Below are positions 3,579-31,794 of a stretch of 64,000 bases of DNA, piece by piece. The stretch spans positions 512,001 to 576,000 of the forward strand of contig CAVURN010000002.1 in NCBI GenBank assembly GCA_963743915.1, in the 5' to 3' direction. The notes below the pieces were generated by a model that searched no databases, was not told where the DNA came from, and was given only the letters and a program-made list of their open reading frames with translations. This DNA is from an uncultured Actinomycetota bacterium (GTDB lineage Bacteria; Actinomycetota; Actinomycetes; JAHEKZ01). Positions within the stretch are counted from its first letter, which is position 1; every line of letters begins with the position of its first letter. The translations under genes were made by a program, and so were the position numbers.

Positions 3579-3847
3579 GCCGCTCCCCTGCTGCCTGAGG
3601 CCGCCGCCGGCCGTCTGCCGGAGGCGCGTCGTCGTTGCTGATCGTAGCCAGTCATGAGCGCCTCGCCACGCCGGGGCGGAGGCAGCGTGGCTCGCCCTCG
3701 AGGTCACGAAACGGCAACGACCACCCACGGGTCTGACGCGGCGCCACGGCACTTCTGCGTCGCCGCGTCGGACGCCCCGAGTCCGGCGGCCGGCAACACC
3801 CCGCAGACAAACTTCGCCCCCTCTCACCACACGGAGGGCAGAGTCGG

Positions 3848-3853
3848 CATAAT
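3848..3853 (+). promoter_or_regulatory. -10 hexamer (CATAAT) of probable leaderless ctaE-qcrCAB promoter
   Basis: CATAAT 7 nt before GTG at 3861; no SD. Confidence 0.6.
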
Positions 3854-3860
3854 CGGGCGC

Positions 3861-4466
3861 GTGTCGACAGCTACCGCGGCCGAGCCTGCCCAGATCCAGG
3901 CCCCCAACCGGCCCAACCTCGTCAGCGTAGGAACCATCGTCTGGCTCTCCCAGGAGCTGATGTTCTTCGCTGCCCTGTTCGCGATGTACTTCACGGTGCG
4001 TCAGGTGACGCTGCCCGACTCCTGGCCGCCGGACGACGTCCACCTGAACATCCCGTTCGCCTCGGTCAACACACTGGTGCTGGTGTCGTCGTCGCTCACC
4101 TGCCAGCTCGGGGTGTTCGCGGCGGAGCGCGGAGACGTCAAGGGTCTGCGCAAGTGGTTCGTCATCACCTACCTGATGGGCGCTTTCTTCGTCGCCGGCC
4201 AGGTGTTCGAGTACACGGAGCTGGTCCACGAGGGGCTCACGCTCAGCTCGTCGCCCTACGGCTCGGTCTTCTACCTGACCACGGGGTTCCACGCCCTGCA
4301 CGTGACAGGCGGTCTGATCGCCTTCCTGTTCGTGCTCGCCACCACCTACATCGCGCGCCGCTTCGACCATGACCAAGCCACCCGGGCCATCGTCGTGTCG
4401 TACTACTGGCACTTCGTCGACGTCGTGTGGATCGCCCTGTTCGCGACCATCTACTTCATCCAGTAG
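3861..4466 (+). CDS. ctaE: Cytochrome c oxidase subunit III
   Basis: [42 protein letters not shown]. Confidence 0.96.
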
Positions 4467-4486
4467 CCACTCACCAGGGACCACTC

Positions 4487-5306
4487 GTGACCTTCATCCT
4501 CGCCCGGCGCCGTAGCCCCTGGGCCACCGCCCTCCTGCTCCTGCTGGCGCTGCTCGCCGTCGGTGGCGTCTATGCCATCGCGGCCGGGTCAGACGCAGGC
4601 CGAGGCCACCACGCCCAGTGCGTCCACCACGCAGATCGAGCAGGGCCGCAAGCTCTTCCTCGAAGGCTGCTCCACGTGCCACGGACTGAACGCCGACGGG
4701 GGCTACCAGCCGGACGGCACCGTCGCCGGGCCGTCACTGATCGGCGTCGGCGCCGCCTCCGTCGACTTCCAGGTCGCCACAGGTCGGATGCCGCTGGCGA
4801 ATCCCGGGGCGCAGGCCATCCGCAAGCCCCCGGTCTACAACGAGGAGGAGATCGCCGCCCTCGCGGCGTACATCGGCTCACTCGGTGCGGGTCCGGCCAT
4901 CCCCGGTCCGGAGCAGTACGACACCACGGGCATCACGCCTGAGGAGCTCGCCCTGGGCGGCCAGCTGTTCCGGGCCAACTGCGCCTCCTGCCACAACTTC
5001 TCCGGCAAGGGTGGGGCACTGACGGACGGCAAGTACGCCCCGGCGTTGACCGAGGTCGACCCCAAGCACATCTACTCGGCCATGCTCATCGGCCCCCAGA
5101 ACATGCCGAACTTCCCGGACACCACGCTGCGCCCCGAGGACAAGCGGGCCATCATCGCCTACATCGAGACGCTGCGGGACAGCCCGAACAACGGCGGCAT
5201 CGACACCGGACGACTGGGACCGGTCACGGAGGGCCTGTTGCTCTGGACCCTCGGACTCGGCGCCCTGATCTCGGTCGCCATCTGGATCGGAGTGAAGGCC
5301 AAGTGA
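4487..5306 (+). CDS. qcrC: Cytochrome bc1 diheme cytochrome c subunit; frameshift ~4585
   Basis: Two CXXCH (CSTCH, CASCH), DFQVATGRMP; N-terminal TM (VTFILARRRSPW..) in another frame. Confidence 0.93.
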
Positions 5307-6311
5307 CCATCGAGACCCACGGCGCAGGCGACAGCGACCTGCCCGTCCACAAGCCTCGCCGCGCCGACATCGACCCGCGGGCGGCCAAGCGCGCCGAGCG
5401 CCAGGTGGGGTTCCTGTTCCTCGGCTCGGGACTGGCCAGCGTCGCCTTCATCGTCGCCTACGTGGTCACGCCCGATCGACGAGACGATCCCGCTGCCCTT
5501 CTTCGGTGACACCAACGCGTCCAACCTGCTGCTCGGCATCACCATGGGCCTGGCGCTCTTCCTGATCGGGGCAGCGGCGATCCACTGGGCCAAGAAGCTC
5601 ATGCCGGACGTCGAGATCGTCCACCAGCGCTCGCCGGAGTCCTCCGAGCCCGAGGATCGCGACGCGCTGCTGATCGAGTACCAGCGCGGGGTCGACGAGA
5701 GCGGGATCAAGCGGCGGCCGTTCATCCTCGGCAGCATGATCACCGCCCTGGGACTGGCCGGACTGCCGGCCATCGTGCTGCTCCGCGACCTGGGGCCGCT
5801 GCCCGGCACGGCGCTGCGCACCACGATGTGGACGGCGGGCACCCCCATCCTCGTCGCCGAGACCCACCAGAAGATCCGACCGGAGGACCTCGAGGTCGGC
5901 ACCCTGGTCAGCGCGGTCCCGGAGGGCCTCGAGGAGGTCATGGAGGAGGAGGGCAACCTCAACGAGCTCGCCAAGGCCGCCGTCATGCTCATCCGCATGG
6001 ATCCCAGCGAGATCGTGGCCGACCAGACGCCGTCCGGCGAGGAGTCGTGGACCTACCAGGGCATCATGTGCTACTCGAAGATCTGCACGCACGTCGGCTG
6101 CCCTCTCGGCCTCTACGAACAGCTGACCCACCACATGCTCTGCCCCTGCCACCAGTCGACCTTCGACCTGTCCGACGCCGGCAATGTGATCTTCGGCCCC
6201 GCCGCCCGCTCCCTGCCTCAACTCGCGATCACCGTGGATGAGGACGGATACTTAGTTGCTCGCGAAGGGTTCGCTGAGCCGGTGGGACCGAGCTTCTGGG
6301 AGCGCGGATGA
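5303..6311 (+). CDS. qcrA: Cytochrome bc1 Rieske iron-sulfur subunit; frameshift ~5480
   Basis: [35 protein letters not shown]; N-terminus in ORF 5303..5509. Confidence 0.94.
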
Positions 6312-7986
6312 GTACCAGCAAGGTGGAGCAGGCCGGTGGCGCCGGCTACGTCTGGGTCGACGACCGCGTTCCGGCTGCGAAGTACCTGAAGAAGCAGCTG
6401 AACAAGGTCTTCCCCGACCACTGGTCGTTCATGCTCGGCGAGATCGCCCTCTACAGCTTCATCATCCTGCTGCTGTCGGGCACCTTCCTGTCGCTGTGGT
6501 TCAAGCCCTCGATGATCGAGGTCGTCTACGACGGTTCGTACCTGCCGCTCAACGGCGTGAAGATGTCCGAGGCCTACGCCTCGACGCTCGACATCAGCTT
6601 CGACGTCCGTGGCGGCCTGTCTCATGCGCCAGATCCACCACTGGGGTGCGCTCTTCTTCGTCGCAGCCATCTCCGTCCACCTGCTGCGGGTCTTCTTCAC
6701 CGGCGCCTTCCGCAAGCCGCGTGAGATCAACTGGGTGATCGGTGTCGGACTGCTGACCCTTGCGCTCCTCGAGGGCTTCGCCGGCTACTCGCTCCCCGAC
6801 GACCTGCTCTCCGGCACCGGGCTGCGGATCGCCCAGGGCATCATGCTTTCCATCCCTGTCGTCGGCACGTACATGTCGTTCTTCGTCTTCGGCGGGGAGT
6901 TCCCCGGCACCGACTTCATCCCCCGCCTCTACACCGTGCACGTGCTCCTGGTGCCCGGCATCATCCTGGCGCTGATCACCGTGCACCTGATGCTCGTGTG
7001 GTTCCAGAAGCACACGCAGTACCCCGCCAAGGGACGCACCGAGCGCAACGTCATCGGCTACCCGCTCTTCCCGATCTACACCGCCAAGGCCGGTGGCTTC
7101 TTCTTCGTCGTCTTCGGTGTGACGGCACTGATGGGCGGCCTGTTCCAGATCAACCCGATCTGGCTCTACGGCCCCTACATCCCCGACCAGATCACCGCCG
7201 GCTCACAGCCCGACTGGTACATCGGCTGGCTCGAGGGCGCCCTGCGGATGATGCCGAACATCGAGTTCGTGCTCTTCGGGAACTGGACGCTGAGCCTGAA
7301 CGTCCTCTTCCCGGCCGCCATCTTGCCGGGCATCATCTTCACCCTGCTGGCGCTCTATCCCTGGATCGAGGCGTGGGCCACGGGCGACAAGCGGACGCAC
7401 CACCTGCTCGACCGGCCCCGCAACGCCCCCACCCGCACGGCACTGGGAGCCATGGCGCTGTCGTTCTACATCCTGCTGTGGGTCGAAGGTGGCAACGACC
7501 TCATCGCCAGCACCTTCAGTCGTCAACGTCTTCGCGATCACCTGGTTCATGCGCATCGCGATCTTCGTGGTGCCGCCACTGGTCTTCATCGTGACCAAGC
7601 GCATCTGCTTCGGTCTGCAGCGCCGGGACCGCGACAAGCTGCTGCACGGCTACGAGTCCGGCGTCATCAAGCGCCTGCCCAACGGCAAGTACTACGAGCA
7701 GCACCAGCCGATCTCGGACGAGGAGCGCGCGGTACTCATGGCGCGCGCCAGTGCGCCTCAGCCGCTGCCCATGCCGGAGAAGTACGACGAGAACGGCATC
7801 AAGCAGAAGGGCTACGGAGTCAAGCGTCTGCAGGCGCGACTCTCGCACTTCTTCTACGCCGAGCGGATCCCCATGCCGACGCCGGCCGAGATCGAAGAGG
7901 CGACGCACCACGAGGCCGAGATCACCGCCGAGCGGGACCACGAGATCGACGACTCCCGCGCCAAGGCACTCGCTCCTCGCGAGTGA
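6308..7986 (+). CDS. qcrB: Cytochrome b subunit of bc1 complex; frameshifts ~6620 and ~7518
   Basis: [17 protein letters not shown] / [27 protein letters not shown] / [21 protein letters not shown] across ORFs 6308..6724, 6609..8051, 7489..7986. Confidence 0.94.
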
Positions 7987-8089
7987 CACCCCGAGCCCGC
8001 CGAGATGCGTGGCTGAGTGACGCCTCAGGCCCGCCGGATGCGTGCTGGTGACACTCAGGCCCGTCGAGATGCGTTGGCTCGGTGACGCC
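7983..8089. repeat. Degenerate ~32 bp tandem repeat, about 3.3 copies
   Basis: gtgacaccccgagcccgccgagatgcgtggctga / gtgacgcctcaggcccgccggatgcgtgctg / gtgacactcaggcccgtcgagatgcgttggctcg / gtgacgccc. Confidence 0.7.
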
Positions 8090-8103
8090 CACCGGCCAGC
8101 CGG

Positions 8104-8592
8104 CTAGGCCGGACGGCGCGCTGACCGCGCAGCAGGTGCAGCTTGGCCCCGACCACGCTCGGTTCACGCCTCGAGGTCGCGGGCGACGCGAAGGACCGGC
8201 TCGTACCGTGTCGTCAGCTCGAGCTGGCCTGACGCCATCAGCCAGCCCCGGACCCTCGACGCCTCGAGCACGACCGATCCCGGATCGCAGTCCGGACTAG
8301 CACGACCTCGTCGAGAGCCGCTCTCCGGGCGCGTGGGCGACTCAGCGGCATCGGCAGTGTGCTCCACATGGAGGGCACGGGATCGACGAGATGGACACGG
8401 TACCCGCATCCGGCGAGCCAGACGCGTAGACGCCCGATGCCCCACCTACGTCGAGCACGCGCGCAGGCATCGGGGGAGCACCCGACCGAGGATGTCTTGG
8501 GTACGCGCCGCTCGATGGGTGTCGAGACACCGCGGTGAGCCGTCACGCTCGAGACCAAGCGCGTAGTGCGCGAGGATCTCCGGATCGATCAT
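8104..8592 (-). pseudogene. Class I SAM-dependent methyltransferase remnant (multiple indels, central region missing)
   Basis: Fragments MIDPEILAHYALGLERD / RVLDVGGASGVYA / WLAGCGYRVHLVDPVP / VEGPG / EPSVVGAKLHLL; -10 TAGTGT 6 nt before ATG. Confidence 0.65.
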
Positions 8593-8695
8593 GGAGACAC
8601 ACTAGCGCTCGATAGCGGCGCGGGCGTCGGGACGTCATCCAGCCACGCAGGCACGCATTCGGCGGGCTTGGGGGTGGAGCCGACGGGTGGCGCCG

Positions 8696-9877
8696 CTAGG
8701 AGAGCGCGCTCCCCTGCTTCCACTCCTCCCAGGACATGTTCCAGTCGGTGTAGCCGTTCCACGGCTCCATCGTCCGGGTCCCGTTCACGTACTTCACGAC
8801 GTCGCCCGGCGTGGACAGGTTGTAGAACCAGCTGGCGTTCTCGGTGGACATGCCGGTGCAGCCGTGGCTGACGTTGGCCTCGCCCTGCGACGAGACCGAC
8901 CAGGGCGCAGCATGCAGGTACTCGCCGCTCCAGGTCAGACGCATCGCGTACTCGACGTCGAGCCGGTAGTACTCCGGATCGTTCTCGTCGACATCGATCG
9001 TGGCCGCGTCCATGACGACCTCGCGCTGCTTGGACATGATCACCTTGGTGCCGATCCGGGTGTCCCAACCGGACTTGCCGGTGGTGATCGGAACCGTGCG
9101 GATCACGTCACCGTTGCGCGTCACGGTCATGGTGTGGGCACCGATGTCGACCGTGCTGATCCTGGCGTCACCCACCGAGAAGCGGGCCAGGTCGTTGTCG
9201 TCGCCCCAGACGCCCTTGCCGAGCTCGACACCGGCCAGCTGGGTGCGGACGCTGACATCGGTGCCGGGGCGCCAGTACGTCTTCGGCCGCCAGCGCACCA
9301 TCTGGTCGTTGACCCAGTACCAGCCACCGACCTGCTGGGGAGACGTGGTGACCTTCAACCTCCGCTCCGCGACCGCCTTGCGGGTGACGGGCTGGTCGAA
9401 GGTGACGATGATCGGCATCCCGACGCCCACGGTCGACGCGCCGGCCGGGCTGATCCCGGTGTACGCGAGGCTCTTGGGCTTGACCGTCCGCACGGTGGTG
9501 CGGGTGCGCGTGGCGAGCCCCTCGGCGTCCACCGCACGAGCCTCGACGGTGTACCGGGTGTCGAACGGCAGGGGTGCGGCGTCGGACGCCCAGCGCTGCT
9601 TCTGGTCGCTGAACCCACCGGGCAGCTTGCGGCCGCGCTCGTCGCGGATCACGACCGAGGTCAGGGTGCCTCGCTTCGCCGTGACCACGATGGGCCGGTT
9701 GGGGCTCCAGTCGCGCGACCCCTCCGCCGTCACCCTGATGGTCGCCTCTGACTCAGGGGTGGCCGCGACCCCGGCGGGGCCACCGGCCCCCGCGGTGGTG
9801 CAGGCAGCCAGGAACAGGCAGGCGGACGCCGCCGCTGCCTGAGAGCGCCATCTGCGGGCGCGGATCCTGGTGCTCAC
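8696..9877 (-). CDS. L,D-transpeptidase lipoprotein (Ig-like + YkuD)
   Basis: Lipobox LAAC; VGVGMPIIVTF, WRPKTYW, catalytic HAAPWS..NVSHGC. Confidence 0.93.
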   Translation of the reverse strand: MSTRIRARRWRSQAAAASACLFLAACTTAGAGGPAGVAATPESEATIRVTAEGSRDWSPNRPIVVTAKRGTLTSVVIRDERGRKLPGGFSDQKQRWASDAAPLPFDTRYTVEARAVDAEGLATRTRTTVRTVKPKSLAYTGISPAGASTVGVGMPIIVTFDQPVTRKAVAERRLKVTTSPQQVGGWYWVNDQMVRWRPKTYWRPGTDVSVRTQLAGVELGKGVWGDDNDLARFSVGDARISTVDIGAHTMTVTRNGDVIRTVPITTGKSGWDTRIGTKVIMSKQREVVMDAATIDVDENDPEYYRLDVEYAMRLTWSGEYLHAAPWSVSSQGEANVSHGCTGMSTENASWFYNLSTPGDVVKYVNGTRTMEPWNGYTDWNMSWEEWKQGSALS

Positions 9878-9967
9878 TTGAGGTCCCCGTAGAAACTTGG
9901 AAGGAGGCGGGTCGTCCCGTCTCCTTCTCACGTCGACACCTGAGGCTACCTTCTCAAGCCCAGAAGT

Positions 9968-10369
9968 TCACTCTCTGGCGAAGTCGCCGACGTAGTACTC
10001 GAAGAGCATGTAGGTGGTGGCGGCCACGAGGGCCACCACGCCGAGGATGATCATCCACCACATCAGGAAGGCGACGCCCAGCGCGGTGACCGCCGACCCC
10101 AGCCCCACCGCCAGCGGCGACCAGCTGTGCGGGCTGAAGAAGCCCTGGACACCGGCGCCCTCGGCGATCTCGCCCTCGTCGTCGTCCTCAGGCAGCGGCT
10201 CGACGCGCTTGGCCGTGAAGAGCAGGTAGAAGGCGACCAGGAACCCCAGCCCGCCGGTGAAGACCAGAGCCGCGGTCCCGGCCGGCTCCTTGGCCATGAA
10301 CCAGTAGACGACTGCGACCAAGCCGAAGAACAGGGCAATTCCGACAAAGAGCCGTCCGGCAGTCCGCAT
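9968..10369 (-). CDS. ctaF: Cytochrome c oxidase subunit IV (actinobacterial)
   Basis: [37 protein letters not shown]. Confidence 0.92.
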
Positions 10370-10370
10370 G

Positions 10371-12091
10371 TCAGCTCTCCCTGGCCTCGGACGTCCCGGT
10401 GACCGCGACGGGCGGCGATGCGGCCCCGACCTCGGCGAAGGCGATCTCCGGGTGGTGCAGGTCGAACGCCGGGGACTCCGACCGGATCCGAGGAATCTGG
10501 TCGAAGTTGTGCCGCGGCGGTGGGCAGCTGGTCGCCCACTCCAGCGACCGTCCCCAGCCCCAGGGGTCGTCCTCGGTGACGACGGTCCCGCGCTTGTGCG
10601 TGCGCCACACGTTGTACAGGAACGTCACCGTCGACAGGCCGAGCAGGATCGAGCCGACCGTCGAGACCTGGTTCATGAAGATGTAGCCGTCCTCGGGCAC
10701 GTAGTCGCCGTACCGACGCGGCATGCCGGCCGCCCCGAGCCAGTGCTGGATGAGGAACGTGGTCTGGAACCCGATGAACAGCAGCCAGAAGTGGACCTGC
10801 CCGATGCGCTCGTCGAGCATCTTGCCGGTCCACTTCGGCCACCAGAAGTAGAAGCCGGCGAACATCAGGAACACCACGGTGCCGAACACGGTGTAGTGGA
10901 AGTGCGCCACCACGAAGTAGCTGTCGGACACGGCGAAGTCCAGAGGGGGCGACGCCAGGATGATGCCGGTCAGCCCACCGAAGAGGAAGGTGACCAGGAA
11001 GCCCAACGAGAAGGTCATGGGGGTCTCGAACGTGATCGAGCCGCCCCACATGGTGCCGATCCAGTTGAAGAACTTCACGCCGGTCGGGATGGCGATCAGC
11101 ATCGTCATGAACGCGAAGAACGGCAGCATCACCGCACCGGTGACGAACATGTGGTGCGCCCACACCGCGACCGAGAGCCCGGCGATGGCGATGGTCGCGA
11201 AGACCAGGCCCTTGTAGCCGAAGATCGGCTTGCGGCTGAACACCGGCAGGATCTCGGAGATGATGCCGAAGAACGGCAGCGCGAGGATGTAGACCTCGGG
11301 GTGTCCGAAGAACCAGAAGAGGTGCTGCCAGAGGATCGCTCCTCCGACCTCGGGCGCGAAGACCAGGCTGCCGAACTGGCGGTCGATCTCGAGCACCAGG
11401 AGTGCGGCGGCCAGGACCGGGAAGGCCATCAGGACCAGGATGCTGGTCAGCAGCACGTTCCAGCTGAAGATCGGCATCCGGAACATGGTCATGCCCGGGC
11501 GCCCGCATGGCCACGATCGTGGTGATGAAGTTGACCGAGCCGAGGATGGTGCCGACACCGGTCAGGGCGATGCCCATGATCCACAGGTCAGCGCCCGACC
11601 CCCGGTGAGTACACCGCGTCGGAGAGCGGTGCGTAGGCGGTCCAGCCGAAGGCCGCGGCCCCGCCGGGCGTGACCAGGCTGAGCAGGACGATGATGGCGC
11701 CCAACAGGTACAGCCAGTACGCCAGCATGTTCATGCGCGGGAACGCGACGTCCGGCGAGCCGATCTGCAGCGGCATGATCGCGTTCGCGAAGCCGGAGAA
11801 GAGCGGCGTGGCGAACAGGAACAGCATGATCGTGCCGTGCATCGTGAAGAGCTGGTTGTACTGCTCGAGGCTGACGAACTGCATGTTCGGCTCGGTCAGC
11901 TCGGCCCTGATCACCAGGGCCATGACCCCGCCGATCAGGAAGAACACGAACGACGTGATCAGGTACAGGTAGCCGATCACCTTGTGGTCGGTGCTGGTCA
12001 ACCAGCTGACGACCATCCGACCGCGGCTCATCGGCGGCGCCTGGGGCACCTGCGGGACGGTGTCGGTGACCGTTTCGTCGATCAGGGTCAC
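10371..12091 (-). CDS. ctaD: Cytochrome c oxidase subunit I; frameshifts ~11590 and ~11500
   Basis: [49 protein letters not shown]. Confidence 0.95.
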
Positions 12092-12933
12092 GTCAGGTCT
12101 CCGATCCGCGTGTTGCCCTGGTTCTGGGCGTCGGTGTTGGGACGTTCGGTGTCGAGCTCACCGGTCTGCCCTGCGGCCCGGAGCTCCTCCATCTTGGCGT
12201 CGAACGTCTCCTGGTCGACCACCTCGACCCAGAAGAGCATCTGCGAGTGGTAGGTGCCGCACATCTCGGCGCACTTGCCGTGGAACCGACCCTCTTCGGT
12301 CGGGGTGACCTCGAAGCGGTTCGCACGTCCGGGGACGACGTCCATCTTCATCAGGAAGGACGGGATCCAGAAGGAGTGGATGACGTCGGGGGACGTCAGC
12401 ACGAACTGCACCTTCTGGTCCACCGGGAGGTACAGCGTGGGCAGGTCGCTCGGGGAGCCGGACTCGTAGACGCCCTCGTCGGTGTAGTTGAAAGCCCAGT
12501 TCCACTGGTAGCCGACGACGTTGATGGTCTGCGCCTGGTCGTTCTTCACCTCGGTGATGATCTCCGTGTCACGGATGGTGAAGACGGCGAACACCGCGAT
12601 GACGATCAGCGGCGTGACGGTGTACAGCACCTCGATGGGGACGTTGTACCGCGTCTGCTTGGGGATCTCGTCGTCGCGCCGGCGGCGGTAGAACCAGGCC
12701 GCACCGAGCATGAGCGCCCACGTGATGGCACCGATGATCCAGAGGGCGAGCCAGGTGCCCTGCCACAGGTGGAAGATGCGGTCGGCGTGGTCGGACGCCG
12801 GGTCAGGGATCGAGATCTGGTTGGGCATGTCTTCGACCGAGCAGCTGGTCAGCACCAGCGCGGACAGACCGGCCAGACCACTTGCGGCAACCCGACGGCG
12901 TCGACGGAGGTCGACAGTGCGAGCAGACGTCAC
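12088..12933 (-). CDS. ctaC: Cytochrome c oxidase subunit II
   Basis: Lipobox LTSC; GYQWNW, DVIHSFW, CuA motif [12 protein letters not shown]. Confidence 0.96.
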
Positions 12934-22459: not shown

Positions 22460-22672
22460 TCACTCGGTCGGAGGGTGCAGGGACATCGGCCCGTACACCT
22501 CACGCTCTTCCTCCATCAGCGTCACCGCGTCGACACCGGCCCGCAGGAGCATCTCCCACTCCTCACCGATCCACGTCTCCGCGTCGGACTGCGAGCTGAA
22601 CGAGGGTGCCTCGCTGCCCTCGACCTCCGCCGGCGATGCATCCGTCCGCTCGTACCGCCACGTCCATGCCAT
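22460..22672 (-). CDS. Conserved small acidic actinobacterial hypothetical protein (70 aa)
   Basis: MAWTWRYE..FSSQSDAETWIGEEW..YGPMSL, pattern typical of the small gene near cobU in actinomycetes. Confidence 0.75.
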   Translation of the reverse strand: MAWTWRYERTDASPAEVEGSEAPSFSSQSDAETWIGEEWEMLLRAGVDAVTLMEEEREVYGPMSLHPPTE

Positions 22673-22789
22673 CGTCAGCACGCTCCTTCGCCAGTCATCC
22701 GTCCACGGGGCATACGTAGTGATCGCCCGGCCGGGCTTCTTTGACGCCGACCGCTCAGGTGTGATCAGATCACGCCCACAACTCCATCC

Positions 22790-22937
22790 GCCCGTTGGCG
22801 GGGGAAGTCCGGTCGAATTCCGGCGCTGACCCGCAACCGTAGGCCGCGCACGTGCTCGCACGTGTCCCGCGGCGAGCCGGGATACCCGACAACTGGCGAG
22901 CGGCTCCCTTTTTCGTCGAGGTCTACGGGGCGGAGCC
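22790..22937 (+). ncRNA. Cobalamin riboswitch
   Basis: GGGAAGTCCGGTCGAATTCCGGCGCTGACCCGCAACCGT core, B12-box GAGCCGGGATACC, downstream hairpin 22902-22937 whose loop can pair with GACCCG; precedes B12 uptake/salvage genes. Confidence 0.88.
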
Positions 22938-23047: not shown

Positions 23048-24118
23048 ATGCACTTCAGCCTGCGCCGACTCACCGGCGCGCTCACGGCCGCCGCCGTCAC
23101 CGGCGGCCTGCTCCTGACCGCGCCCGTCCCGACTGCGACGGCAGCCACATCCGACGATCCTGCCCGCACCGGTCTGTTCGGCGGCCAGGACCCCACGTTC
23201 GACGGCGTCTATCGCCAGAGCCTGTCCCTCATCGCCCTGGACGCCGCGGGCGCCAGGCTTCCGGGGTCGGCGGTCAAGTGGCTGCTCCGCCAGCAGTGCC
23301 CGAACGGCAAGTTCACCTCGTTCCGGGCCGACGTGTCGGAGCCGTGCGGTGCCTACGACAGCAATGCCACCGCCCTGGCGATCATGGCACTGAAGGCGGT
23401 GGGCGAGGGTGCAGCCGCTCGCACCTCTCTGGAGTGGCTCCTGGGCAAGCAGCTGCGGAACGGGGGGTGGGAGTACAGCCCCGGGTGGAAAGCGGACGCC
23501 AGCAGCACCGGCTACGTGGTCCAGGCGATGGTCACCATGGGAGTGAAGCCGCGCTCGGTGGCCAGACGCGCGAGCGGCCCGCAGTACCTGCGCAGCGTGC
23601 AGCTTCGCTGCGAGCATGAACCAGCCAAGGAGCGAGGCGCGCTCACGTACCTCGGCACCGCCGACGCCTTCTCGACGGTGCAGGCGACCCCCGCCCTGGC
23701 CGGGGACGCACTGCCCGTCGACGCGCGGACGGTCAAGAACCGACTGCCCGCGCTCACGTGCCCCAAGGAGGGTGACCAGCCCTCGGCTGCCGCAGTCGCC
23801 GCGGGCTACCTCGGTCGAGTGATCGACGACAACGCCGGCACCGTGCCCGGCTACGGCGGAGGACCCGACTACGGCAACACCGCCAATGCCGTGCTGTCGA
23901 TGGTCGCCGCAGGATTCGGCGCCCAGCAGGTGGACGCGGCGATGGCTGCGCTCGAGGCGAACGCCGCCGACTACACGCGCGACGACGCCGACGAGGTCGT
24001 CCCGGGTGCGGCCGCGCTCGTGGTGCTGGCCGAGCTCGCCACGTCCGGCTCCCCACGTGACGTCGACGGCCTCAACCTGGTCCGCGACCTCCTGAGCTCG
24101 CGCACCCGGGCGGGCTGA
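23048..24118 (+). CDS. Secreted prenyltransferase/squalene-cyclase-repeat (alpha/alpha barrel) protein, probable cobalamin-capture protein
   Basis: Signal peptide; DPTFDGVYRQSL, WLLRQQCPNGKF, DSNATALAIMAL, WLLGKQLRNGGW; first gene after riboswitch, SD GAGAGG. Confidence 0.75.
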   Translation: MHFSLRRLTGALTAAAVTGGLLLTAPVPTATAATSDDPARTGLFGGQDPTFDGVYRQSLSLIALDAAGARLPGSAVKWLLRQQCPNGKFTSFRADVSEPCGAYDSNATALAIMALKAVGEGAAARTSLEWLLGKQLRNGGWEYSPGWKADASSTGYVVQAMVTMGVKPRSVARRASGPQYLRSVQLRCEHEPAKERGALTYLGTADAFSTVQATPALAGDALPVDARTVKNRLPALTCPKEGDQPSAAAVAAGYLGRVIDDNAGTVPGYGGGPDYGNTANAVLSMVAAGFGAQQVDAAMAALEANAADYTRDDADEVVPGAAALVVLAELATSGSPRDVDGLNLVRDLLSSRTRAG

Positions 24119-24119
24119 C

Positions 24120-25013
24120 ATGGCGACCGCGCTCCGCCGTCCCGCGCACCGGACCTTCGCACTGCTCGCGGTGCTCGTGGTCCTCGCGGGGACGGTCGGC
24201 GCGTGGGGCTCCGGCACGGCGGAAGCCTCCTCCTACCGCTACTGGTCGTACTGGATCGGCGGCGGCGACGGTTGGGGCTTCTCGACGCAAGGAGCGGCAC
24301 GACGTCCGGCGGACGGAACCGTCGACGGCTGGCGCTTCTCGATCAGCGAGGCCTCTTCGTCGACGACTCCCCCGCGCCGTGAACCGTCGTTCGCCCGGAT
24401 CTGCGGCGACACGGCACCGGTGGCCGGCAGCAAGCGGGTGGGGCTGGTGGTCGACTTCGGCACCACGTCGGACGCGCCCCCCGGCGAGACGCCGCCGGCG
24501 CTTCTGGCGCGCTGCGTGGTGGTCCCCGAGGATGCCAACGGCTACGACGTCCTCGCGACCACCGTGAGCCTCCGCACGCAGGACGGCCTGGTGTGCGGCC
24601 TCGCCGGCTACCCGACCACCGAGTGCGGCGCTCCGGTCGCCGACAGGTCGCCGACGGACGAGCCCCAGGACCCAGAAGAGACCACGGGAGCCGGTGGGGG
24701 GTCGTCCACCGGGGGGGTCGCGGGTGGCGCGGAGCCGCCGGCCACCTCCGACGGTGGGGCGGGCGAAGGTTCTGGCACCGACCGCTCCGGTGAGGACCAG
24801 CGGAGCAAGCGCAAGGACGACAAGGCCGACAGGGAGGCGGATCCCGCTCCCGATGCAGCGGTGCCGGGCGACGCGACCGCCGTCGCCGCACCCGTGGGAT
24901 CGGACGTCACCCCCTCCGGCGGGGAGGGCAGCTCCACGGCGGTGCTGGTCGGCGTCGCTCTCATCGCCGTGATCGGCGCGGCCGCGTGGGTCGTCCAACG
25001 GAGGCGCGGATGA
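24120..25013 (+). CDS. SCO2322-like surface protein (signal peptide, Cys-containing domain, linker, C-terminal anchor)
   Basis: YRYWSYW..GA..PADGTVDGWRF, KRVGLVVDFGT, LVCGLAGYP..EC; C-terminal TM followed by RRRG. Confidence 0.78.
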   Translation: MATALRRPAHRTFALLAVLVVLAGTVGAWGSGTAEASSYRYWSYWIGGGDGWGFSTQGAARRPADGTVDGWRFSISEASSSTTPPRREPSFARICGDTAPVAGSKRVGLVVDFGTTSDAPPGETPPALLARCVVVPEDANGYDVLATTVSLRTQDGLVCGLAGYPTTECGAPVADRSPTDEPQDPEETTGAGGGSSTGGVAGGAEPPATSDGGAGEGSGTDRSGEDQRSKRKDDKADREADPAPDAAVPGDATAVAAPVGSDVTPSGGEGSSTAVLVGVALIAVIGAAAWVVQRRRG

Positions 25014-26134
25014 CCCAATTTGCGCGCGCCCTGCACCCGGTTGCCTGGTGGCTGTGGGCGCTGGGACTTGCCGCAGCGGCGTCCCGGACGCTCAACCCGC
25101 TGCTGCTCGGCGCGATCATCGCGGTGGCCGCGCTGGTCGTGGCGGCGCGGCGGAGCGAGGCTCCGTGGGGCGCGAGCTTCCGCGCGTTCCTCCTGCTCGG
25201 GGTGTTCGTCCTGGGGATCCGCCTGGTGTTCGAGGTCCTCTTCGGGGCGCCGGTGCCGGGCACCACGATCGTGACGCTGCCCGAGCTGACCCTGCCGAGC
25301 TGGATGGCGGGTGCGCAGCTCGGCGGAGCCGTCACGCTCGAGGCCCTGGTCGCCGCGGTGTACGCCGGCCTGCAGCTCGTGGCGATCCTCGCGTGCGTGG
25401 GCGCCGCCAACGCGTTGGCCAACCCGACCCGGCTGCTCAAGAGCGTGCCGGGAGCGCTGTACGAGGTGGGGGTGGCCGTCGTCGTCGCGCTCACCCTCGT
25501 GCCGAGCGCCCTCGCCCACCTGCAGCGGGTGCGCGAGGCGCGACGGCTCCGGGGCCGCAGCAGCCGCGGTCTGCGAGCGGCGGCCCGGACCGCCGTGTCG
25601 GTGCTCGAGGGCGCTCTCGAGCGCTCACTGTCGCTGGCGGCTGCGATGGACTCCCGCGGGTTCGGACGCCTCAACCCGATCCCACCCGTCCAGCGACGGG
25701 TCACCACCGCCGTCACGGTGAGCGGACTCCTCGCGATCCTGGTGGGCGGGTACGCACTGCTCGACGCGGGGACCTCCGTCGGCGCCGCGATGGCGACACT
25801 GGGCGCAGGTGTGGCCCTGACCCTCGTCGGCCTGCGCCGGGCCAACCGCCGCGCGGTTCGCACCGTCTACCGGCCGGATCCCTGGCGGTGGCCCGAGCAC
25901 GCCACCGTGGCGTCGGGACTGCTGGCCGCGGTGGTCTACGCCGCTGTCGCCTCGCTCGACCCGACCGCCATGCTGCCGGCGACGTCGCCCCTGGCCTGGC
26001 CCGAGCTGCCTCTGCTGCCGCTGCTGGCCACTCTGCTGGCGGCGGCTCCGGCGTGGGTCACGCCGCCGGTGCCGCGCGACGTCCTGTCTGCCGCACCCCG
26101 GCCGGCACCTGAGCTCTCGGCGGTGGCCGCGTGA
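25010..26134 (+). CDS. ECF transporter transmembrane T component (CbiQ family)
   Basis: LHPVAWWLWA, GAANALANP, ARRLRG, AMDSRGFG; ATGA overlap. Confidence 0.9.
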   Translation: MTQFARALHPVAWWLWALGLAAAASRTLNPLLLGAIIAVAALVVAARRSEAPWGASFRAFLLLGVFVLGIRLVFEVLFGAPVPGTTIVTLPELTLPSWMAGAQLGGAVTLEALVAAVYAGLQLVAILACVGAANALANPTRLLKSVPGALYEVGVAVVVALTLVPSALAHLQRVREARRLRGRSSRGLRAAARTAVSVLEGALERSLSLAAAMDSRGFGRLNPIPPVQRRVTTAVTVSGLLAILVGGYALLDAGTSVGAAMATLGAGVALTLVGLRRANRRAVRTVYRPDPWRWPEHATVASGLLAAVVYAAVASLDPTAMLPATSPLAWPELPLLPLLATLLAAAPAWVTPPVPRDVLSAAPRPAPELSAVAA

Positions 26135-27724
26135 TCACCTTCGACGACGTCACCCTCCGGTACCAGGACGCCGCACGTCCGGCCCTCAGTCACGTCACCC
26201 TGCACATCCCCGAGGGAGAGCTCGCCCTCGTGGTCGGGCGAACCGGATCAGGCAAGTCCTCGCTGCTCCGTGCCGTGAACGGCCTCGCTCCGTCCTTCAC
26301 CGGCGGCCGCCTCTCCGGCCGCGTGACCGTCGCCGGGCGTGACACGCGCGACCACGCACCTCGCGAGCTGGCGGACGTGGTCGGCACGGTGCTGCAGGAT
26401 CCGCGCGACGGCTTCGTCACCGAGATCGTCGAGGACGAGATCGCCTACGGCATGGAGTCGCTGGGGCTGGCCGCCGACGTCATGCGCCGCCGCGTCGAGG
26501 AGGCCCTCGACCTGATGGGGCTGCACGACGTGCGAAGCCGGCCACTCCGCACGCTCTCCGGTGGCCAGCAGCAGCGCACCGCCATCGCCTCGGTGCTCGC
26601 CCAGCACCCTCGGGTGCTCGTGCTCGACGAGCCGACGTCCGCCCTCGACCCCAGCGCGGCCGAAGAGGTGCTCGCAGCGCTGCAGCGGCTCGTCCACGAC
26701 CTCGGACTGACCGTGCTGCTCGCCGAGCACCGGCTCGAGCGGGTCGTGCAGTTCGCCGACCGGATCGTGCACGTGCACGGGGGCGAGGCCACCGTCGGCG
26801 CCCCCGCCCAGGTCATGGTGGACGCCCCCGTGGCGCCTCCCGTGGTCGAGCTCGGACGCTGGGCGAAGTGGGAGCCACTCCCGCTGTCGATCCGCGATGC
26901 CCGGCGTCTGGCTGCGCCGCTGCGTGAGACGCTGCGCGCCCTGCCGGCAGCTCCGGCACCACGAGCACCCCTCGGCCGACGGGTCGCGGAGGTGAGCGGC
27001 CTGCACGTCGCCTTCGGCGACCATGTCGCGCTGCAGGACGTGACGCTGAGCCTGCACGCCGGCGAGATCGTGGCGGTGATGGGCCGCAACGGCGCCGGGA
27101 AGTCCACCCTGCTGCGCAGCCTCGTGGGTCTGACAGACCCCACGCGCGGTCGCGTGGAGGTGGGCGGCGACGCTCCGGGCGGGCTCTCCGCCGACGCACT
27201 CGTACGCACGCGTCGGCATGGTCCCTCAGGAGCCGGGCGACCTGCTGTGGCACGAGAGCGTCGAAGGTGAGTGCGGAGACTCACCCTCGCCCGACGCGGC
27301 GCGCGCGGTGTACGCCGAGCTCGCCCCCGGGGTCGACCCTCAGACACACCCCCGTGACCTGTCCGAGGGCCAACGGCTCGCGCTCGCTCTCGCGGTCGTG
27401 CTGGCGGCAGATGCTCCCCTGCTGCTGCTCGACGAGCCGACGCGGGGGCTCGACTACCCCACCAAGCACCGGCTCGTCGCCCTGCTGCGGCGCCGCGCCG
27501 CGTCCGGCCACACCGTCGTGGTCGCCACGCACGACGTCGAGCTGGCGGCCGACCTTGCGACCCGCACCGTCGTCGTCGCCGACGGTGAGATCGTCACCGA
27601 CGGCCCCACCCGAGACGTCGTGACCGCGTCTCCGCAGTTCGCCCCGCAGGTGGCCAAGATCCTGGCCCCCACGCCCTATCTCACGGTCACCGACGTCACG
27701 GCTGCGCTGGCGGTGTCCCCGTGA
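26131..27724 (+). CDS. ECF transporter ATPase with two ABC domains; frameshift ~27210
   Basis: GRTGSGKS, LSGGQQQR, LDEPT; second domain GRNGAGKST, LSEGQR, LDEPTRGLD. Confidence 0.92.
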
Positions 27725-28527
27725 CGAGTGCGCACCGGCTGACTCCCCGATCGGCGACGGCGATCGGGATCGTCTCGCTCATCGGCCTGCTCGCGTTCGG
27801 CTGGCCGCTGCTGGTCGAGCCCGGAACCTGGCTCGCGGAGAGCCCGGACGGGCCCTGGTTCTTCGCGCTGCTGGTGCCCCTGCTGCTCGCCGTGGTGCTG
27901 GCCGAGGTCTCCGAGGGAGGGATCGACGCGAAGACCATCGCGCTGCTGGGGGTGCTCACCGCTGTCGCCGCTGCGCTGCGACCGCTGTCCGGCGGCGTGA
28001 CCGGGTTCCAACCGATGTTCGTGGTGCTGGTGATCGGGGGTCGGGTGTTCGGGCCGGGGTTCGGCTTCCTGCTGGGGGCGACCTCGATGCTCACCTCCGC
28101 CCTGCTGACCGGTGGGGTCGGGCCGTGGCTGCCGTTCCAGATGCTGGGCGCGGCCTGGATCGGTCTCGGCGCCGGGCTGCTCCCCCGGGCCCGAGGACGC
28201 CGTGAGGTCGCCCTGCTGGCCGGGTACGGGGCCCTCACCGCACTGGCCTTCGGACTGCTGCTCAACCTCTGGTTCTGGCCGTTCGTCGTCGCCGACGGAA
28301 GCATCGCCTTCGTCGCGGGTGCGCCCATCACCGAGAACCTCGGTCGGCTGCTCGCCTTCACCGTGGCGACCTCCTGGGGCTTCGACATCCCGAGAGCCTT
28401 GGGGAACGCCGTACTGATCGCGCTGCTCGGTGCGCCGGCGTTGCGGGTGCTGCGGCGCGTCCACCGGGTCGCCGCCTTCGATGCGCTGCCCGAGTTCACG
28501 CCCGCACCCACCCGAGCGACCGCGTGA
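27721..28527 (+). CDS. ECF transporter substrate-specific S component (cobalamin-type by context)
   Basis: DAKTIALLGVL, GGRVFGPGFGF, GGVGPWLPFQM, GFDIPRALGN. Confidence 0.87.
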   Translation: MTSAHRLTPRSATAIGIVSLIGLLAFGWPLLVEPGTWLAESPDGPWFFALLVPLLLAVVLAEVSEGGIDAKTIALLGVLTAVAAALRPLSGGVTGFQPMFVVLVIGGRVFGPGFGFLLGATSMLTSALLTGGVGPWLPFQMLGAAWIGLGAGLLPRARGRREVALLAGYGALTALAFGLLLNLWFWPFVVADGSIAFVAGAPITENLGRLLAFTVATSWGFDIPRALGNAVLIALLGAPALRVLRRVHRVAAFDALPEFTPAPTRATA

Positions 28528-29873
28528 GAGTGCGCCTGCTCGGCACGGGGTCCGCCGACGGGTGGCCCAATCCGTTCTGCACCTGCGCGTCCTGCGCCGA
28601 CGCGCGGCTGACCGGTGCGGTGCGCGGTCAGACCGGCGCCCTGGTCGACGACTCGGTGCTCATCGACTGCGGACCGGAGATCCCCGCCGCCGCCTCGCGG
28701 GCAGGGATCGACCTGACCGGGGTGCGGACCTTGCTCTTCACCCATCAGCACCCGGACCACGTCGGTCCTGCTGTGCTGCTCTTCCGGCACTGGGCACGAC
28801 GAGTCGAACCCCTCGCCGTGTACGCACCGCAGCGGGTGATCGAAGAGCTGCGCCACTGGGTCGCACCGACGGATCCGGTCACGTTCCACGGCGTCACTGC
28901 GGCCGACACCGTCACGTTCGACGGCTACACGGTGCGCACGCTGCCGGCCGACCACGGTGACGTCACGACCGGCGAGGCGGTGCTCTTCGAGCTCACCGCC
29001 CCGGACCGGCGGCGGCTGCTGTACGCCACTGACACCGGTCCGCTCACTGACGACGCGGTGGACGCCCTCCGTGGGAGGCCGCTGGACCTGGTGCTGCTCG
29101 AGGAGACGTTCGGCGACCACGTCACGCACGGGACCCGCCACCTCGACCTGACCACCTTCCCGGACCAGCTGCGCAGGCTGCGCGAAGTGGGCGCACTGGT
29201 CGATGCGACCGACGTGGTCGCCGTCCACCTCTCGCACCACAATCCGCCGACCTCCGAGCTGGCGCGGCGCCTGGCGGCATGGGGAGCGCGGGTCGTCCCC
29301 GACGGCACTGTCATCGACGTCGGCGCAACGGCAGCCTCGCGACCGGCACTCCCCCACCGGACGTTGGTCATCGGCGGAGCGCGGTCGGGCAAGTCGCGGC
29401 ACGCCGAGCAGATGGTCACCGCCTCGTCCCGAGTCACCTACGTGGCGACCGGACCGACCGATGACGGCGACCCGACGTGGTCGGCGCGGGTCGAGTCACA
29501 CCGACGGCGACGGCCCGGTCACTGGACGACGCGCGAGACGACGGACGTGGCCGGCGTCCTGGCGTCGGCGTCTCCGGGCGAGGTGGTGCTCGTCGACTGC
29601 TTGACCCTGTGGCTCACACGGGTCATGGACGACGCCGGCGCGTGGGACGGTGACCTCGCTCTGGTCGACAAGCAGGTCGACCAGCTGCTCGACGCCTGGC
29701 GCGCCACGCGCGCCACTGTCGTCGCCGTCAGCAACGAGGTGGGACAGGGCGTCGTGCCCTCCACGGCGTCCGGCAGACTCTTCCGCGACGCGCAGGGACG
29801 ACTCAACGCGCGCCTGGCCCGCGAGGCCGACGAGGTCGTCATGATGGTGGCCGGGCGTCCGGTCCGCCTGTGA
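28524..29873 (+). CDS. cobU: Fusion: PhnP-like MBL metallo-hydrolase + adenosylcobinamide kinase/cobinamide-phosphate guanylyltransferase
   Basis: N-term [42 protein letters not shown]; C-term [46 protein letters not shown]; one open frame of 449 aa. Confidence 0.88.
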
Positions 29874-29886
29874 GCGGAGGTCACTG

Positions 29887-31018
29887 GTGGACATCGACCT
29901 GAAGCAGTTCCGCGACGCGATCGTCCGACCCGACGACGACGCGCGACGCGAGGCCGAAGCGCGCCAACGCCTGCTGACCAAGCCGGCCGGGGCCCTGGGG
30001 CGTCTCGAGAAGCTGTCGACGTGGGTGGCCTCCGTGCAAGGACAGTGTCCGCCGCACGCCCTCGAGCGCGCGCGAGTGGTGGTCTTCGCCGGGGACCACG
30101 GGGTGGCGGCGAGCGGCGTCTCGGCCTACCCGCCGGAGGTCACCGCGCAGATGGTGCAGAACTTCGTCGACGGCGGCGCCGCCGTCAACGTCCTCGCGCG
30201 GACCCTGGGCGCCACGGTGCGGGTGGTCGACATGGCGGTTGCGGTGTCGCTCCCCGGGCTGCCCGACGACGTGGTGCGTCACAAAGTGCGTCAAGGTTCC
30301 GGAAACATCGCCGTCGAGGACGCCCTCACCCGTGACGAGGTCGAGGCAGCCTTCGCTGCCGGTGTCGCGATCGCCGATGAGGAGGTCGACGCCGGCGCCG
30401 ACCTCCTCATCCCCGGCGACATGGGGATCGGGAACACGACACCGGCGGCAGCACTGATCGGGCTGCTCGGATCCCGGGACGCCGCTGCCGTCACGGGTCG
30501 CGGGAACGGGCATCGACGACGAGGCGTGGATGCGCAAGGCCGCGGCGGTGCGCGACGCGATGCGACGCGGACGCAGCGTCAAGGCCGACCAGCTCGCGCT
30601 GCTCGCCACGGTCGGTGGGGCCGACTTCGCGGCGATGACCGGATTTCTGCTGCAGGCAGCCGTCCGCAGAACTCCGGTGATCCTCGACGGCGTGGTCTCA
30701 GGCGCCTGCGCCATGGTGGCGCACCGCGTCGCGTACCGGTGCGCGAAGTGGTGGCAGGCGGGTCATCTGTCGGTCGAGCCGGCGCACGAGTACGTGCTCG
30801 CGCGGCTGCAGCTCGAGCCCCTGCTCGACTACCAGCTGCGGCTCGGCGAGGGGACGGGTGCGCTGCTGGCGTTGCCACTCGTCCGCGCGGCTCAAGCCAC
30901 ACTCGCGGAGATGGCCACCTTCGAGGACGCCGGGGTCGCCTCGCTCCCCCCGATCGACGAGGCACCTACCCCCGTGGACGACGAGCAGGACGACGCCGAC
31001 CACTTCGGCCGGAGGTAG
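29887..31018 (+). CDS. cobT: Nicotinate-nucleotide--dimethylbenzimidazole phosphoribosyltransferase; frameshift ~30505
   Basis: [33 protein letters not shown] / [16 protein letters not shown]. Confidence 0.93.
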
Positions 31019-31794
31019 TGGTGCTCGACGGGCTCCGTCTGTCGTTCGGCACCTTGAGCCTGCTGCCGGTCGGCCACCCCACGTCCGTCGACCGCCGCAC
31101 CTGGGGCCGGGCCGTGCTCGTCGCTCCCTGCGTCGGCGTGGTCGTCGGTGCCCTCGCGTGGGCAGCAGCCGTCGGCGTGACCACCCTCGGCGGGTCATCG
31201 TTGCTCGCCGCCGTCGCAGTGGTCGGTGTCCTGGCTGTCCTGACGCGCGGGCTGCACCTCGACGGCTTGGCGGACGTGGCAGACGGTCTCGGCAGCCGCA
31301 GGGCACCCGCCGACGCGCGTGCGGTCATGCGTCAGTCGGACGTCGGACCGTTCGGAGTCGTGGCACTGACACTGGCGCTGCTGACACAGGTCGCGGCGCT
31401 GGCGCCGCTGCTGTCGGGAGACGCAGGGTCTGCGGCGGTCGCGGTGATCGGCGCCTGCGTGGTGAGTCGCGCCGCCGTCACATGGGCCTGCAGGACGGGA
31501 GTGGCGCCGGCCGACACTTCCGGCCTGGGCAGTGCCGTGGCCGGGAGCGTCCGCACCGCCGCGGCCGCGGCGACTGTCCTCGCAAGCGTCGGCGTCGTGG
31601 TCGCGTCCGCAGCCCTGCTCGGCGGGGCGGCCGACGGCTGGCGCTCCGCCGTCGCCGCGACGATCGCGCTGATCGTGGCCGAGCTCTGGCGTCAGCACTG
31701 CAGCCGTCGTCTCGGTGGACTCACCGGCGACGTCCTCGGCGCGACCGAACAGGTGACGTGGACCAGCTTTGTCGTCGCCCTCTCACTCGCCTGA
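31018..31794 (+). CDS. cobS: Adenosylcobinamide-GDP ribazoletransferase (cobalamin synthase)
   Basis: [37 protein letters not shown]. Confidence 0.93.

Follow-up and report, generated by a model that had tools for sequence, protein, structure and literature searches.

Can an energy-coupling factor (ECF) importer be supplied by proteins that sit outside the membrane? Importers of this class are taught as working without extracytoplasmic binding proteins, and to our knowledge the capture of picomolar to nanomolar corrinoids by thick-walled Gram-positive bacteria is poorly understood. The question is raised by a locus from an uncultured Actinomycetota bacterium (assembly GCA_963743915.1, contig CAVURN010000002.1), found within a stretch of 64,000 nucleotides (positions 512,001 to 576,000 of the forward strand) that we will refer to as the window. 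Here, two genes for putative surface proteins (gene 1 and gene 2) lie between a cobalamin riboswitch and the genes of an ECF importer. The reading that we favor, with a probability of roughly 0.55, is that of a riboswitch-repressed corrinoid salvage operon in which the two surface proteins would capture corrinoids for the importer. The features on which this reading turns are as follows, in window coordinates.

22779-22907, + strand: cobalamin riboswitch aptamer, RF00174 (Rfam, 39.2 bits against a gathering score of 31.5; full model, 1-189)
23048-24118, + strand: gene 1, predicted secreted alpha/alpha-toroid protein of the SCO2321 family (ATG at 23048; 356 amino acids, aa; no C-terminal anchor)
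24120-25013, + strand: gene 2, SCO2322-family protein (297 aa; NCBIfam NF040672, 165.6 bits against a cut-off of 85)
24986-26134, + strand: EcfT (CbiQ-type) transmembrane component (Pfam CbiQ, 26.3 bits against a cut-off of 25; conserved 3' of gene 2 in related loci)
26131-27724, + strand: fused EcfA-EcfA' double ATPase (two ABC_tran domains; best matches to ECF_ATPase models; in two frames)
27721-28527, + strand: ECF S (substrate-capture) component (Pfam ECF_trnsprt, PF12822, 40 bits against a cut-off of 30.7)

Gene order and conservation of the operon

The + strand order is riboswitch, gene 1, gene 2, EcfT, fused EcfA-EcfA', and EcfS, followed by an MBL-CobU fusion, CobT, and CobS. T, two ATPase domains, and S are encoded together, as in a dedicated ECF cluster. 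The riboswitch is the sole Rfam family to reach its gathering score in the whole 64-kb window. It ends 141 nucleotides before the start of gene 1, and a pattern search found no intrinsic terminator pattern 3' of it. A single base separates the gene 1 stop from the gene 2 start. A sequence-only reading had singled out these first two genes after the riboswitch, at 23048..25013, as a split transcobalamin/intrinsic factor. Its coordinates proved exact, with open reading frames (ORFs) of 356 and 297 aa, and every string that it quoted is present: DSNATALAIMAL, DASSTGYVVQAM, and FSTVQATPALAG in the gene 1 protein and YWSYW...GA..PADGTVDGWRF in the gene 2 protein, at the very start of the mature domain.

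Scanning species-representative genomes with the gene 2 alignment yielded at least 600 stretches, of which tblastn confirmed at least 584; the best 80 loci were taken further. Where a host is named, it belongs to the Actinomycetota (Streptomyces, Streptacidiphilus, Terrabacter, Segeticoccus, Jiangellaceae, and Nanopelagicales), alongside many metagenome-assembled genomes (MAGs). Synteny was scored by tblastn of the window proteins on the 80 loci, with a required flank of at least 1.4 kb upstream (74 loci) or at least 4.3 kb downstream (66 loci). Gene 1 lies directly upstream of gene 2 on the same strand in 69 of the 74 loci, and EcfT, EcfA-A', and EcfS lie downstream of gene 2 in 65 of the 66. 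By these counts, the importer's constant partner is gene 2, and gene 1 is a frequent companion that can be dispensed with. The lone ECF-less locus, L015, carries gene 1, gene 2, and then cobT directly; its pair may be a second, uncoupled copy. In this MAG (L015:5472-9066), the gene 1 protein has an LPxTG-type anchor.

Regulation is conserved along with gene order. Of the 80 loci, 20 were searched with Rfam; 17 of these have a cobalamin-clan riboswitch, in every case on the same strand and immediately upstream of the gene that opens the cluster. The riboswitch class varies by lineage (RF00174, RF01482 [AdoCbl], and RF01689 [AdoCbl-II]). Both proteins thus belong, as the sequence-only reading had proposed, to a B12-riboswitch-controlled ECF operon, and this operon is conserved across Actinomycetota. 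Downstream of the cluster, a cobU match is found in 11 of the 80 loci and cobT in L015, giving 12 of 80 with cob genes in this position. The genomic context strongly supports a corrinoid role.

One apparent gene 1-gene 2 fusion, the 730-aa protein P0263, was rejected. It keeps the gene 2 signal peptide internally, behind an Arg-rich stretch, which looks like frameshift read-through. P0263 was the only long protein among the best 150 of 2083 representatives, and when proteins of 521-2000 aa were searched specifically for fusions, none turned up, although this negative counts as weak evidence.

The two surface proteins

Profile comparison makes gene 1 a clear SCO2321-family homologue, but an anchorless one. 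Its match to NCBIfam NF053823 (SCO2321 family membrane protein) scores 228.9 bits, under the curated cut-off of 300, and spans profile positions 3-351 of 405; because the match ends at position 351, the anchor part is missing. In a 40-sequence alignment of the gene 1 family (A1), 8 homologues of 417-440 aa have a C-terminal LPxTG or transmembrane anchor and 32, the window's protein included, have none. The N-terminus of gene 1 is signal-peptide-like, as read from the sequence alone, and AlphaFold2 (AF2) gave residues 1-28 a predicted local distance difference test score (pLDDT) below 50.

The AF2 model of gene 1 is a helical toroid of 13 helices, with a pLDDT of 90.2 and a predicted template modeling score of 0.88. 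When this model was compared with the PDB by Foldseek (at least 131 matches with E <= 0.001), it matched drimenyl diphosphate synthase, squalene-hopene cyclase, and complement/TEP thioester domains, with E values of 3e-7 to 1e-4 and template modeling (TM) scores of about 0.5, the terpene cyclase and thioester-domain matches at E 3e-7 having a TM of about 0.53; no transcobalamin is among the best 50 of these matches. The A1 profile likewise found squalene-hopene cyclase (E = 2.5e-20) and other terpene cyclases among PDB sequences, and its 58 matches at E <= 10 include no transcobalamin, intrinsic factor, or haptocorrin. A Pfam scan of gene 1 gave weak SQHop_cyclase_N/C, Prenyltrans, and TED matches. 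Scanned member by member, the family matched SQHop_cyclase_C (36/40), TED_complement (35/40), Prenyltrans (33/40), and Cobalamin_bind, PF01122 (5/40), the last always below the gathering score. In P0174, Cobalamin_bind is the best Pfam match, with 24.8 bits against a cut-off of 25 over profile positions 141-254 of 317. The scan of gene 1 itself (P0001) found no PF01122 match at E <= 10.

We are confident from the model that gene 1 is an alpha6/alpha6 toroid, a fold common to many non-B12 families. It falls in the fold class of the transcobalamin alpha domain; homology to that domain is weakly supported, and membership in its family is not demonstrable. What stands of its proposed identity as a transcobalamin alpha domain is the toroid fold and the five borderline Cobalamin_bind matches; the protein lies nearer to the toroids of squalene-hopene cyclase, prenyltransferases, and thioester domains. 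Its best profile and fold matches, class II terpene cyclases and prenyltransferase beta subunits, share 'WLL..Q...GGW'-type repeats with it. Unlike class II terpene cyclases, gene 1 is a single toroid of about 320 residues that is predicted to be secreted, has two likely disulfides, and lacks their DxDD motif, which is absent from P0001 and present anywhere in only 2 of the 40 family members. Exactly four cysteines (84, 100, 188, and 238) are invariant across A1, and they are the only cysteines of gene 1. Given these cysteines, the AF2/Foldseek toroid, and the absence of DxDD, we regard gene 1 as a non-catalytic alpha/alpha toroid that is secreted and probably disulfide-bonded. When plasmid records were searched by tblastn with gene 1 as the query, only three matched, all actinobacterial.

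Gene 2 matches NF040672 over profile positions 1-143 of 144 (E = 8.5e-49), and Pfam PF28005 (SCO2322) is present on 120 of 120 listed gene 2 homologues. The SCO2322 family comprises 2083 clusters at 50% identity (E <= 0.001), or 367 at E <= 1e-30. The protein divides into a signal peptide (about residues 1-36, assigned by inspection of the residues only), a beta-rich domain (about 37-174), a linker (175-268), and a transmembrane anchor (269-297) ending RRRG. A transmembrane segment with an Arg-rich tail ends 33 of 36 full-length homologues. The description of gene 2 as membrane anchored on a long flexible linker is confirmed by the 94 linker residues (84% G/S/T/P/D/E/A), the hydrophobic tail, and RRRG, and the signal-peptide-like N-termini agree with the proposal that both proteins are extracytoplasmic.

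The gene 2 domain, of about 140 residues, contains four invariant cysteines (95, 132, 159, and 169) and several invariant tryptophans. AF2 predicts a mostly beta structure (pLDDT 89.7) of nine strands and two short helices, in which three N-terminal strands precede a strand-strand-helix-hairpin. The sequence-only reading had taken this domain for a transcobalamin beta domain related to DUF4430, which the searches do not support. The Pfam scan found DUF4430 (PF14478) in 0 of 37 family members at E <= 10. PDB sequence searches with the full alignment (A2), a domain-only alignment (A3), and the 42-aa N-terminal motif stretch found no transcobalamin, intrinsic factor, or haptocorrin; the matches that they did return (uracil-DNA glycosylase, GFP-like proteins, designed Kelch repeats, and TRIM7) were rejected as chance. 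Foldseek against the PDB found nothing at E <= 0.001, with a best overall E of 1.4. Transcobalamin 2v3n ranked 24th (E 3.8, probability 0.10, TMq 0.29, and root mean square deviation 14.6) in a sequential alignment, which misses circular permutation, and it has the highest probability and TM score among the 50 matches listed. A language-model protein atlas returned SCO2322 clusters only and nothing usable after these were skipped.

The motif YW..G..P.DG is C-terminal in the transcobalamin beta domain and in DUF4430. In gene 2 it is N-terminal, so that homology would need a circular permutation. The predicted strand order could allow a circularly permuted beta-grasp. As for the 'echo' of transcobalamin motifs heard in the two proteins, statistical tests of the similarity are weak where the alpha part is concerned and come out negative on the beta side.

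Proposed corrinoid capture, known systems, and rival readings

How might such an operon work? When adenosylcobalamin is scarce, the dedicated importer (T, fused A-A', and S) would be made. In this organism, CobU, CobT, and CobS would be made under the same condition and would convert imported cobinamide to cobalamin; the position of cobU, cobT, and cobS after the importer fits cobinamide salvage. The gene 1 and gene 2 proteins would capture corrinoids outside the membrane and deliver them to the S component. Gene 2 would be the core accessory, a disulfide-bonded, tryptophan-rich beta domain on a membrane tether, and its linker of about 94 residues could span into or across the cell wall. Gene 1 would be either a second face of the binding site or a scavenger. 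Because it has no anchor of its own in this lineage, gene 1 is probably held at the surface via gene 2 or the wall, and the fact that only 1 base separates the gene of an unanchored protein from that of an anchored one suggests an association between them. Gene content, the riboswitch, conservation, folds, and extracytoplasmic features are what the analysis shows; corrinoid binding, hand-over to the S component, and any contact between gene 1 and gene 2 we infer. A complex prediction for mature gene 1 and the gene 2 domain scored 0.07 against a mark of 0.32 and, having been run without controls, counts neither way.

The pair may be called transcobalamin-like in concept; descent of gene 2 from transcobalamin-type domains is not demonstrated. 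More tentatively, and with odds that we put well short of even, the SCO2322 domain could be an unrecognized corrinoid-binding module, whether as a new fold or as a transcobalamin-type beta-grasp that has been circularly permuted. Carried on a wall-spanning linker and partnered with a secreted toroid, it would form a non-covalent bacterial analogue of transcobalamin. The ECF importer would then depend on extracytoplasmic binding proteins, and such a system would be widespread in Actinomycetota, including Streptomyces and freshwater Nanopelagicales.

Parts of this picture have precedents. In the accessible portion of Burroughs et al. (2007, PMC1796856), transcobalamin's C-terminal domain is described as a beta-grasp (SLBB) domain with secreted or anchored bacterial and archaeal homologues, some of them fused to alpha/alpha toroids in either order. 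These homologues are reported there in operons with CbiO-like and CbiQ-like genes, and a role in scavenging B12 or its precursors is proposed. For Lactobacillus sakei, the available text of a 2019 preprint (bioRxiv 10.1101/864751) describes separate secreted proteins, one transcobalamin-beta-like and the other alpha-like, that are encoded in an ECF operon and were modeled as a heterodimer. Going by these portions of the two papers, the concept of a split transcobalamin feeding an ECF importer is already in print, and transcobalamin-like alpha/beta proteins with CbiO/CbiQ or ECF genes had been predicted in 2007 and 2019, so that the novelty attached to the idea in the sequence-only reading was overstated. 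The Firmicute/archaeal SLBB systems and L. sakei Lsa1839/Lsa1840 (ECF genes lsa1836-1838) resemble our locus, as far as those texts go, in having secreted or anchored alpha-like and beta-like proteins, sometimes from separate genes, together with an ECF-type ATPase and T component. They differ in that their beta protein is recognizable as SLBB/transcobalamin-beta by PSI-BLAST/HHpred, whereas SCO2322 gives no such signal here. The accessible portions name no actinobacterial member of this clade, and the L. sakei system is assigned there to heme.

Our literature searches found no report of the actinobacterial SCO2321/SCO2322 pair, of riboswitch control of the pair, or of a function for either family, and searches on DUF4430 with cobalamin found nothing on bacteria with this operon. 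The locus is an actinobacterial variant of a predicted kind of system, and is real, very widespread, and uncharacterized. We know of no measured B12 affinity for the Firmicute/archaeal or L. sakei transcobalamin-like systems.

Mammalian transcobalamin, intrinsic factor, and haptocorrin (PF01122 plus DUF4430/SLBB) are also extracellular, linked to B12 supply, and built from a toroid and a smaller beta-rich domain. Transcobalamin is a single chain that works with an endocytic receptor, whereas here there are two chains, with gene 2 membrane-tethered and delivery proposed to be to an ECF importer. Gene 1 is nearer to terpene-cyclase/TED toroids than to transcobalamin, and gene 2 has no detectable relation to its beta domain. 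Among importers, ECF-CbrT transports cobalamin and cobinamide, according to the available part of Santos et al. (2018, PMC5997447), and shares with our locus a T component, two ATPase domains, an S component, and a B12 genomic context. ECF-CbrT works without extracytoplasmic proteins; our locus also differs in its fused ATPases and in being a dedicated module, in a group I-like gene cluster. BtuF (BtuCD-F) and BtuG/BtuH of Bacteroidetes (PMC8941943, as far as its text was accessible) likewise capture B12 outside the cytoplasm for a membrane transporter, but their folds are unrelated to those of genes 1 and 2, and their transporters are of unrelated classes as well, type II ABC or TonB-dependent.

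Several observations weigh against corrinoid capture by the two proteins. The S component has no recognizable sequence relative among solved S components, so that its B12 specificity rests on context alone: among PDB sequences, a single-sequence phmmer search returned one chance match (E 0.68) and a 24-sequence profile none at E <= 10, the presence of the CbrT structure in the searched PDB being deduced from PMC5997447. The gene 2 domain has no significant relative among solved structures, and its ligand therefore cannot be inferred by homology. B12 riboswitches control cobalt transporter genes as well. Three of the 20 loci searched with Rfam (L015, L040, and L051) have no riboswitch at the gathering score. 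Five of the 74 loci (L046, L047, and L049 from Terrabacter, and L040 and L051) keep gene 2 and the ECF genes with gene 1 absent; the riboswitch directly precedes gene 2 in the three Terrabacter loci, and L040 and L051 have the same upstream neighbors as the window. Finally, the ATPase and cobT of the window each run through two frames, which means that the operon may be defective here or that the assembly contains indels. The ATPase switches frame near 27204-27212, and an uninterrupted 531-aa ORF in locus L001 aligns to it in frame +2 and then +3. The frame change in cobT lies at about 30480-30530.

Could the two proteins instead be true homologues of the alpha and beta parts of transcobalamin/intrinsic factor, split into two chains that clamp one corrinoid? 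Such an origin would fit the alpha/alpha toroid of gene 1 and the Cobalamin_bind matches in 5 of its 40 family members, with P0174 only just under the cut-off. It would also fit the leading place of 2v3n, in probability and TM score, among the listed gene 2 matches, a strand order that could suit a permuted beta-grasp, and the separate transcobalamin-alpha-like and beta-like secreted proteins described, in the accessible literature, from Firmicute ECF operons. Against it, P0001 has no Cobalamin_bind match and its family mostly matches cyclase, TED, and prenyltransferase models; transcobalamin appears neither among the 58 PDB matches of A1 nor among the 50 listed Foldseek matches of gene 1. Gene 2 fares no better, with no DUF4430 in its family, three negative PDB sequence searches, a comparison with 2v3n that is no match, and an atlas that returned only its own family. 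No credible fused form was found among the proteins searched, and the five loci that retain gene 2 and the importer while lacking gene 1 show that a two-chain clamp is not obligatory. We consider this origin unlikely.

A change of cargo is less probable still. The importer and its surface proteins could carry cobalt that serves de novo B12 synthesis, or else a lower-ligand precursor or heme, and the control of cobalt uptake genes by B12 riboswitches would accommodate the first of these. The Streptomyces loci lack the downstream cobU fusion, and many hosts are Streptomyces; no similarity was detected between the S component and a solved B12 S component; and an L. sakei ECF operon with transcobalamin-like proteins has been assigned to heme (bioRxiv 10.1101/864751, accessible text). 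The S component, however, is of the vitamin-type ECF_trnsprt family (PF12822), and a Pfam scan of the window proteins found neither CbiM nor CbiN. Two large folded binding proteins would be unusual for a metal ion, cob genes follow the cluster in the window (cobU, cobT, and cobS) and in the 12 loci noted above, and heme uptake would be unexpected under a B12 riboswitch. Cobalt, heme, and lower-ligand uptake are thus weaker rivals. We give very little credence to the idea that genes 1 and 2 encode envelope proteins outside transport that are merely co-transcribed, with gene 1, for example, an enzyme of toroid fold whose substrate comes from the wall or is an isoprenoid. The best matches of gene 1 are indeed enzymes (squalene-hopene cyclase, E 2.5e-20, and drimenyl diphosphate synthase), and NCBI names its relatives 'prenyltransferase/squalene oxidase repeat-containing protein', but P0001 has no DxDD and only two family members do. 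A secreted, disulfide-bonded protein would also be away from isoprenoid diphosphate substrates, and the riboswitch/ECF gene order is closely kept even among distant Actinomycetota. Gene 1 is unlikely to act as an enzyme.

The reading of a corrinoid salvage operon bears on many organisms, as the cluster is very common and its hosts include antibiotic-producing Streptomyces and abundant freshwater Actinobacteria. If both proteins do bind corrinoids, they would define the actinobacterial route of B12 and cobinamide scavenging, assign a function to two named, uncharacterized families, and might bring to light a new fold for B12 binding. That bacteria encode transcobalamin-like proteins next to ECF genes is, in itself, an older idea.

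Downstream cob genes and the surrounding window

Three cob genes follow the importer.

28524-29873, + strand: MBL-fold domain fused to CobU, adenosylcobinamide kinase/guanylyltransferase (CobU, E 3.5e-55, residues 280-449; Lactamase_B_2, E 5e-18, residues 45-209)
29887-31018, + strand: CobT, dimethylbenzimidazole (DMB) phosphoribosyltransferase, in two frames (PF02277 profile positions 2-176 in 29887-30480 and 197-329 in 30530-31018)
31060-31794, + strand: CobS, cobalamin 5'-phosphate synthase (Pfam CobS, E 2.9e-42; start codon not set)

The MBL-CobU fusion scores 172.6 bits against NCBIfam PRK05800, above the cut-off of 161. Its MBL domain is N-terminal and PhnP-like, and could be a missing phosphatase or phosphodiesterase of nucleotide-loop assembly. 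Matches to the fusion by tblastn over most or all of its length lie 3' of the ECF genes in loci L001, L003, L017, L030, L039, L053, L066, and L068; in the Terrabacter loci, the match covers only about 170 aa.

Elsewhere in the window, the COX1 ORF at 10371-11558 looks truncated (profile positions 147-436 only), as does an MMPL ORF at 43217-43930 (237 aa). Together with the frame switches in the operon, these truncated-looking ORFs may reflect either an assembly prone to indels or gene decay. On the - strand, at about 22460-22750, a small conserved ORF ending ...YGPMSLHPP is situated between an aldo/keto reductase gene and the riboswitch, and it has homologues at the equivalent position in L040 and L051. 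The window as a whole is core actinobacterial chromosome. Positions 3654-12933 carry COX3, cytochrome c, Rieske/QcrA, COX1, and COX2 (cytochrome oxidase and bc1), and beyond these genes the window holds gcvT, lpdA, a 2-oxoacid dehydrogenase E2 gene, lipB, and glnA.

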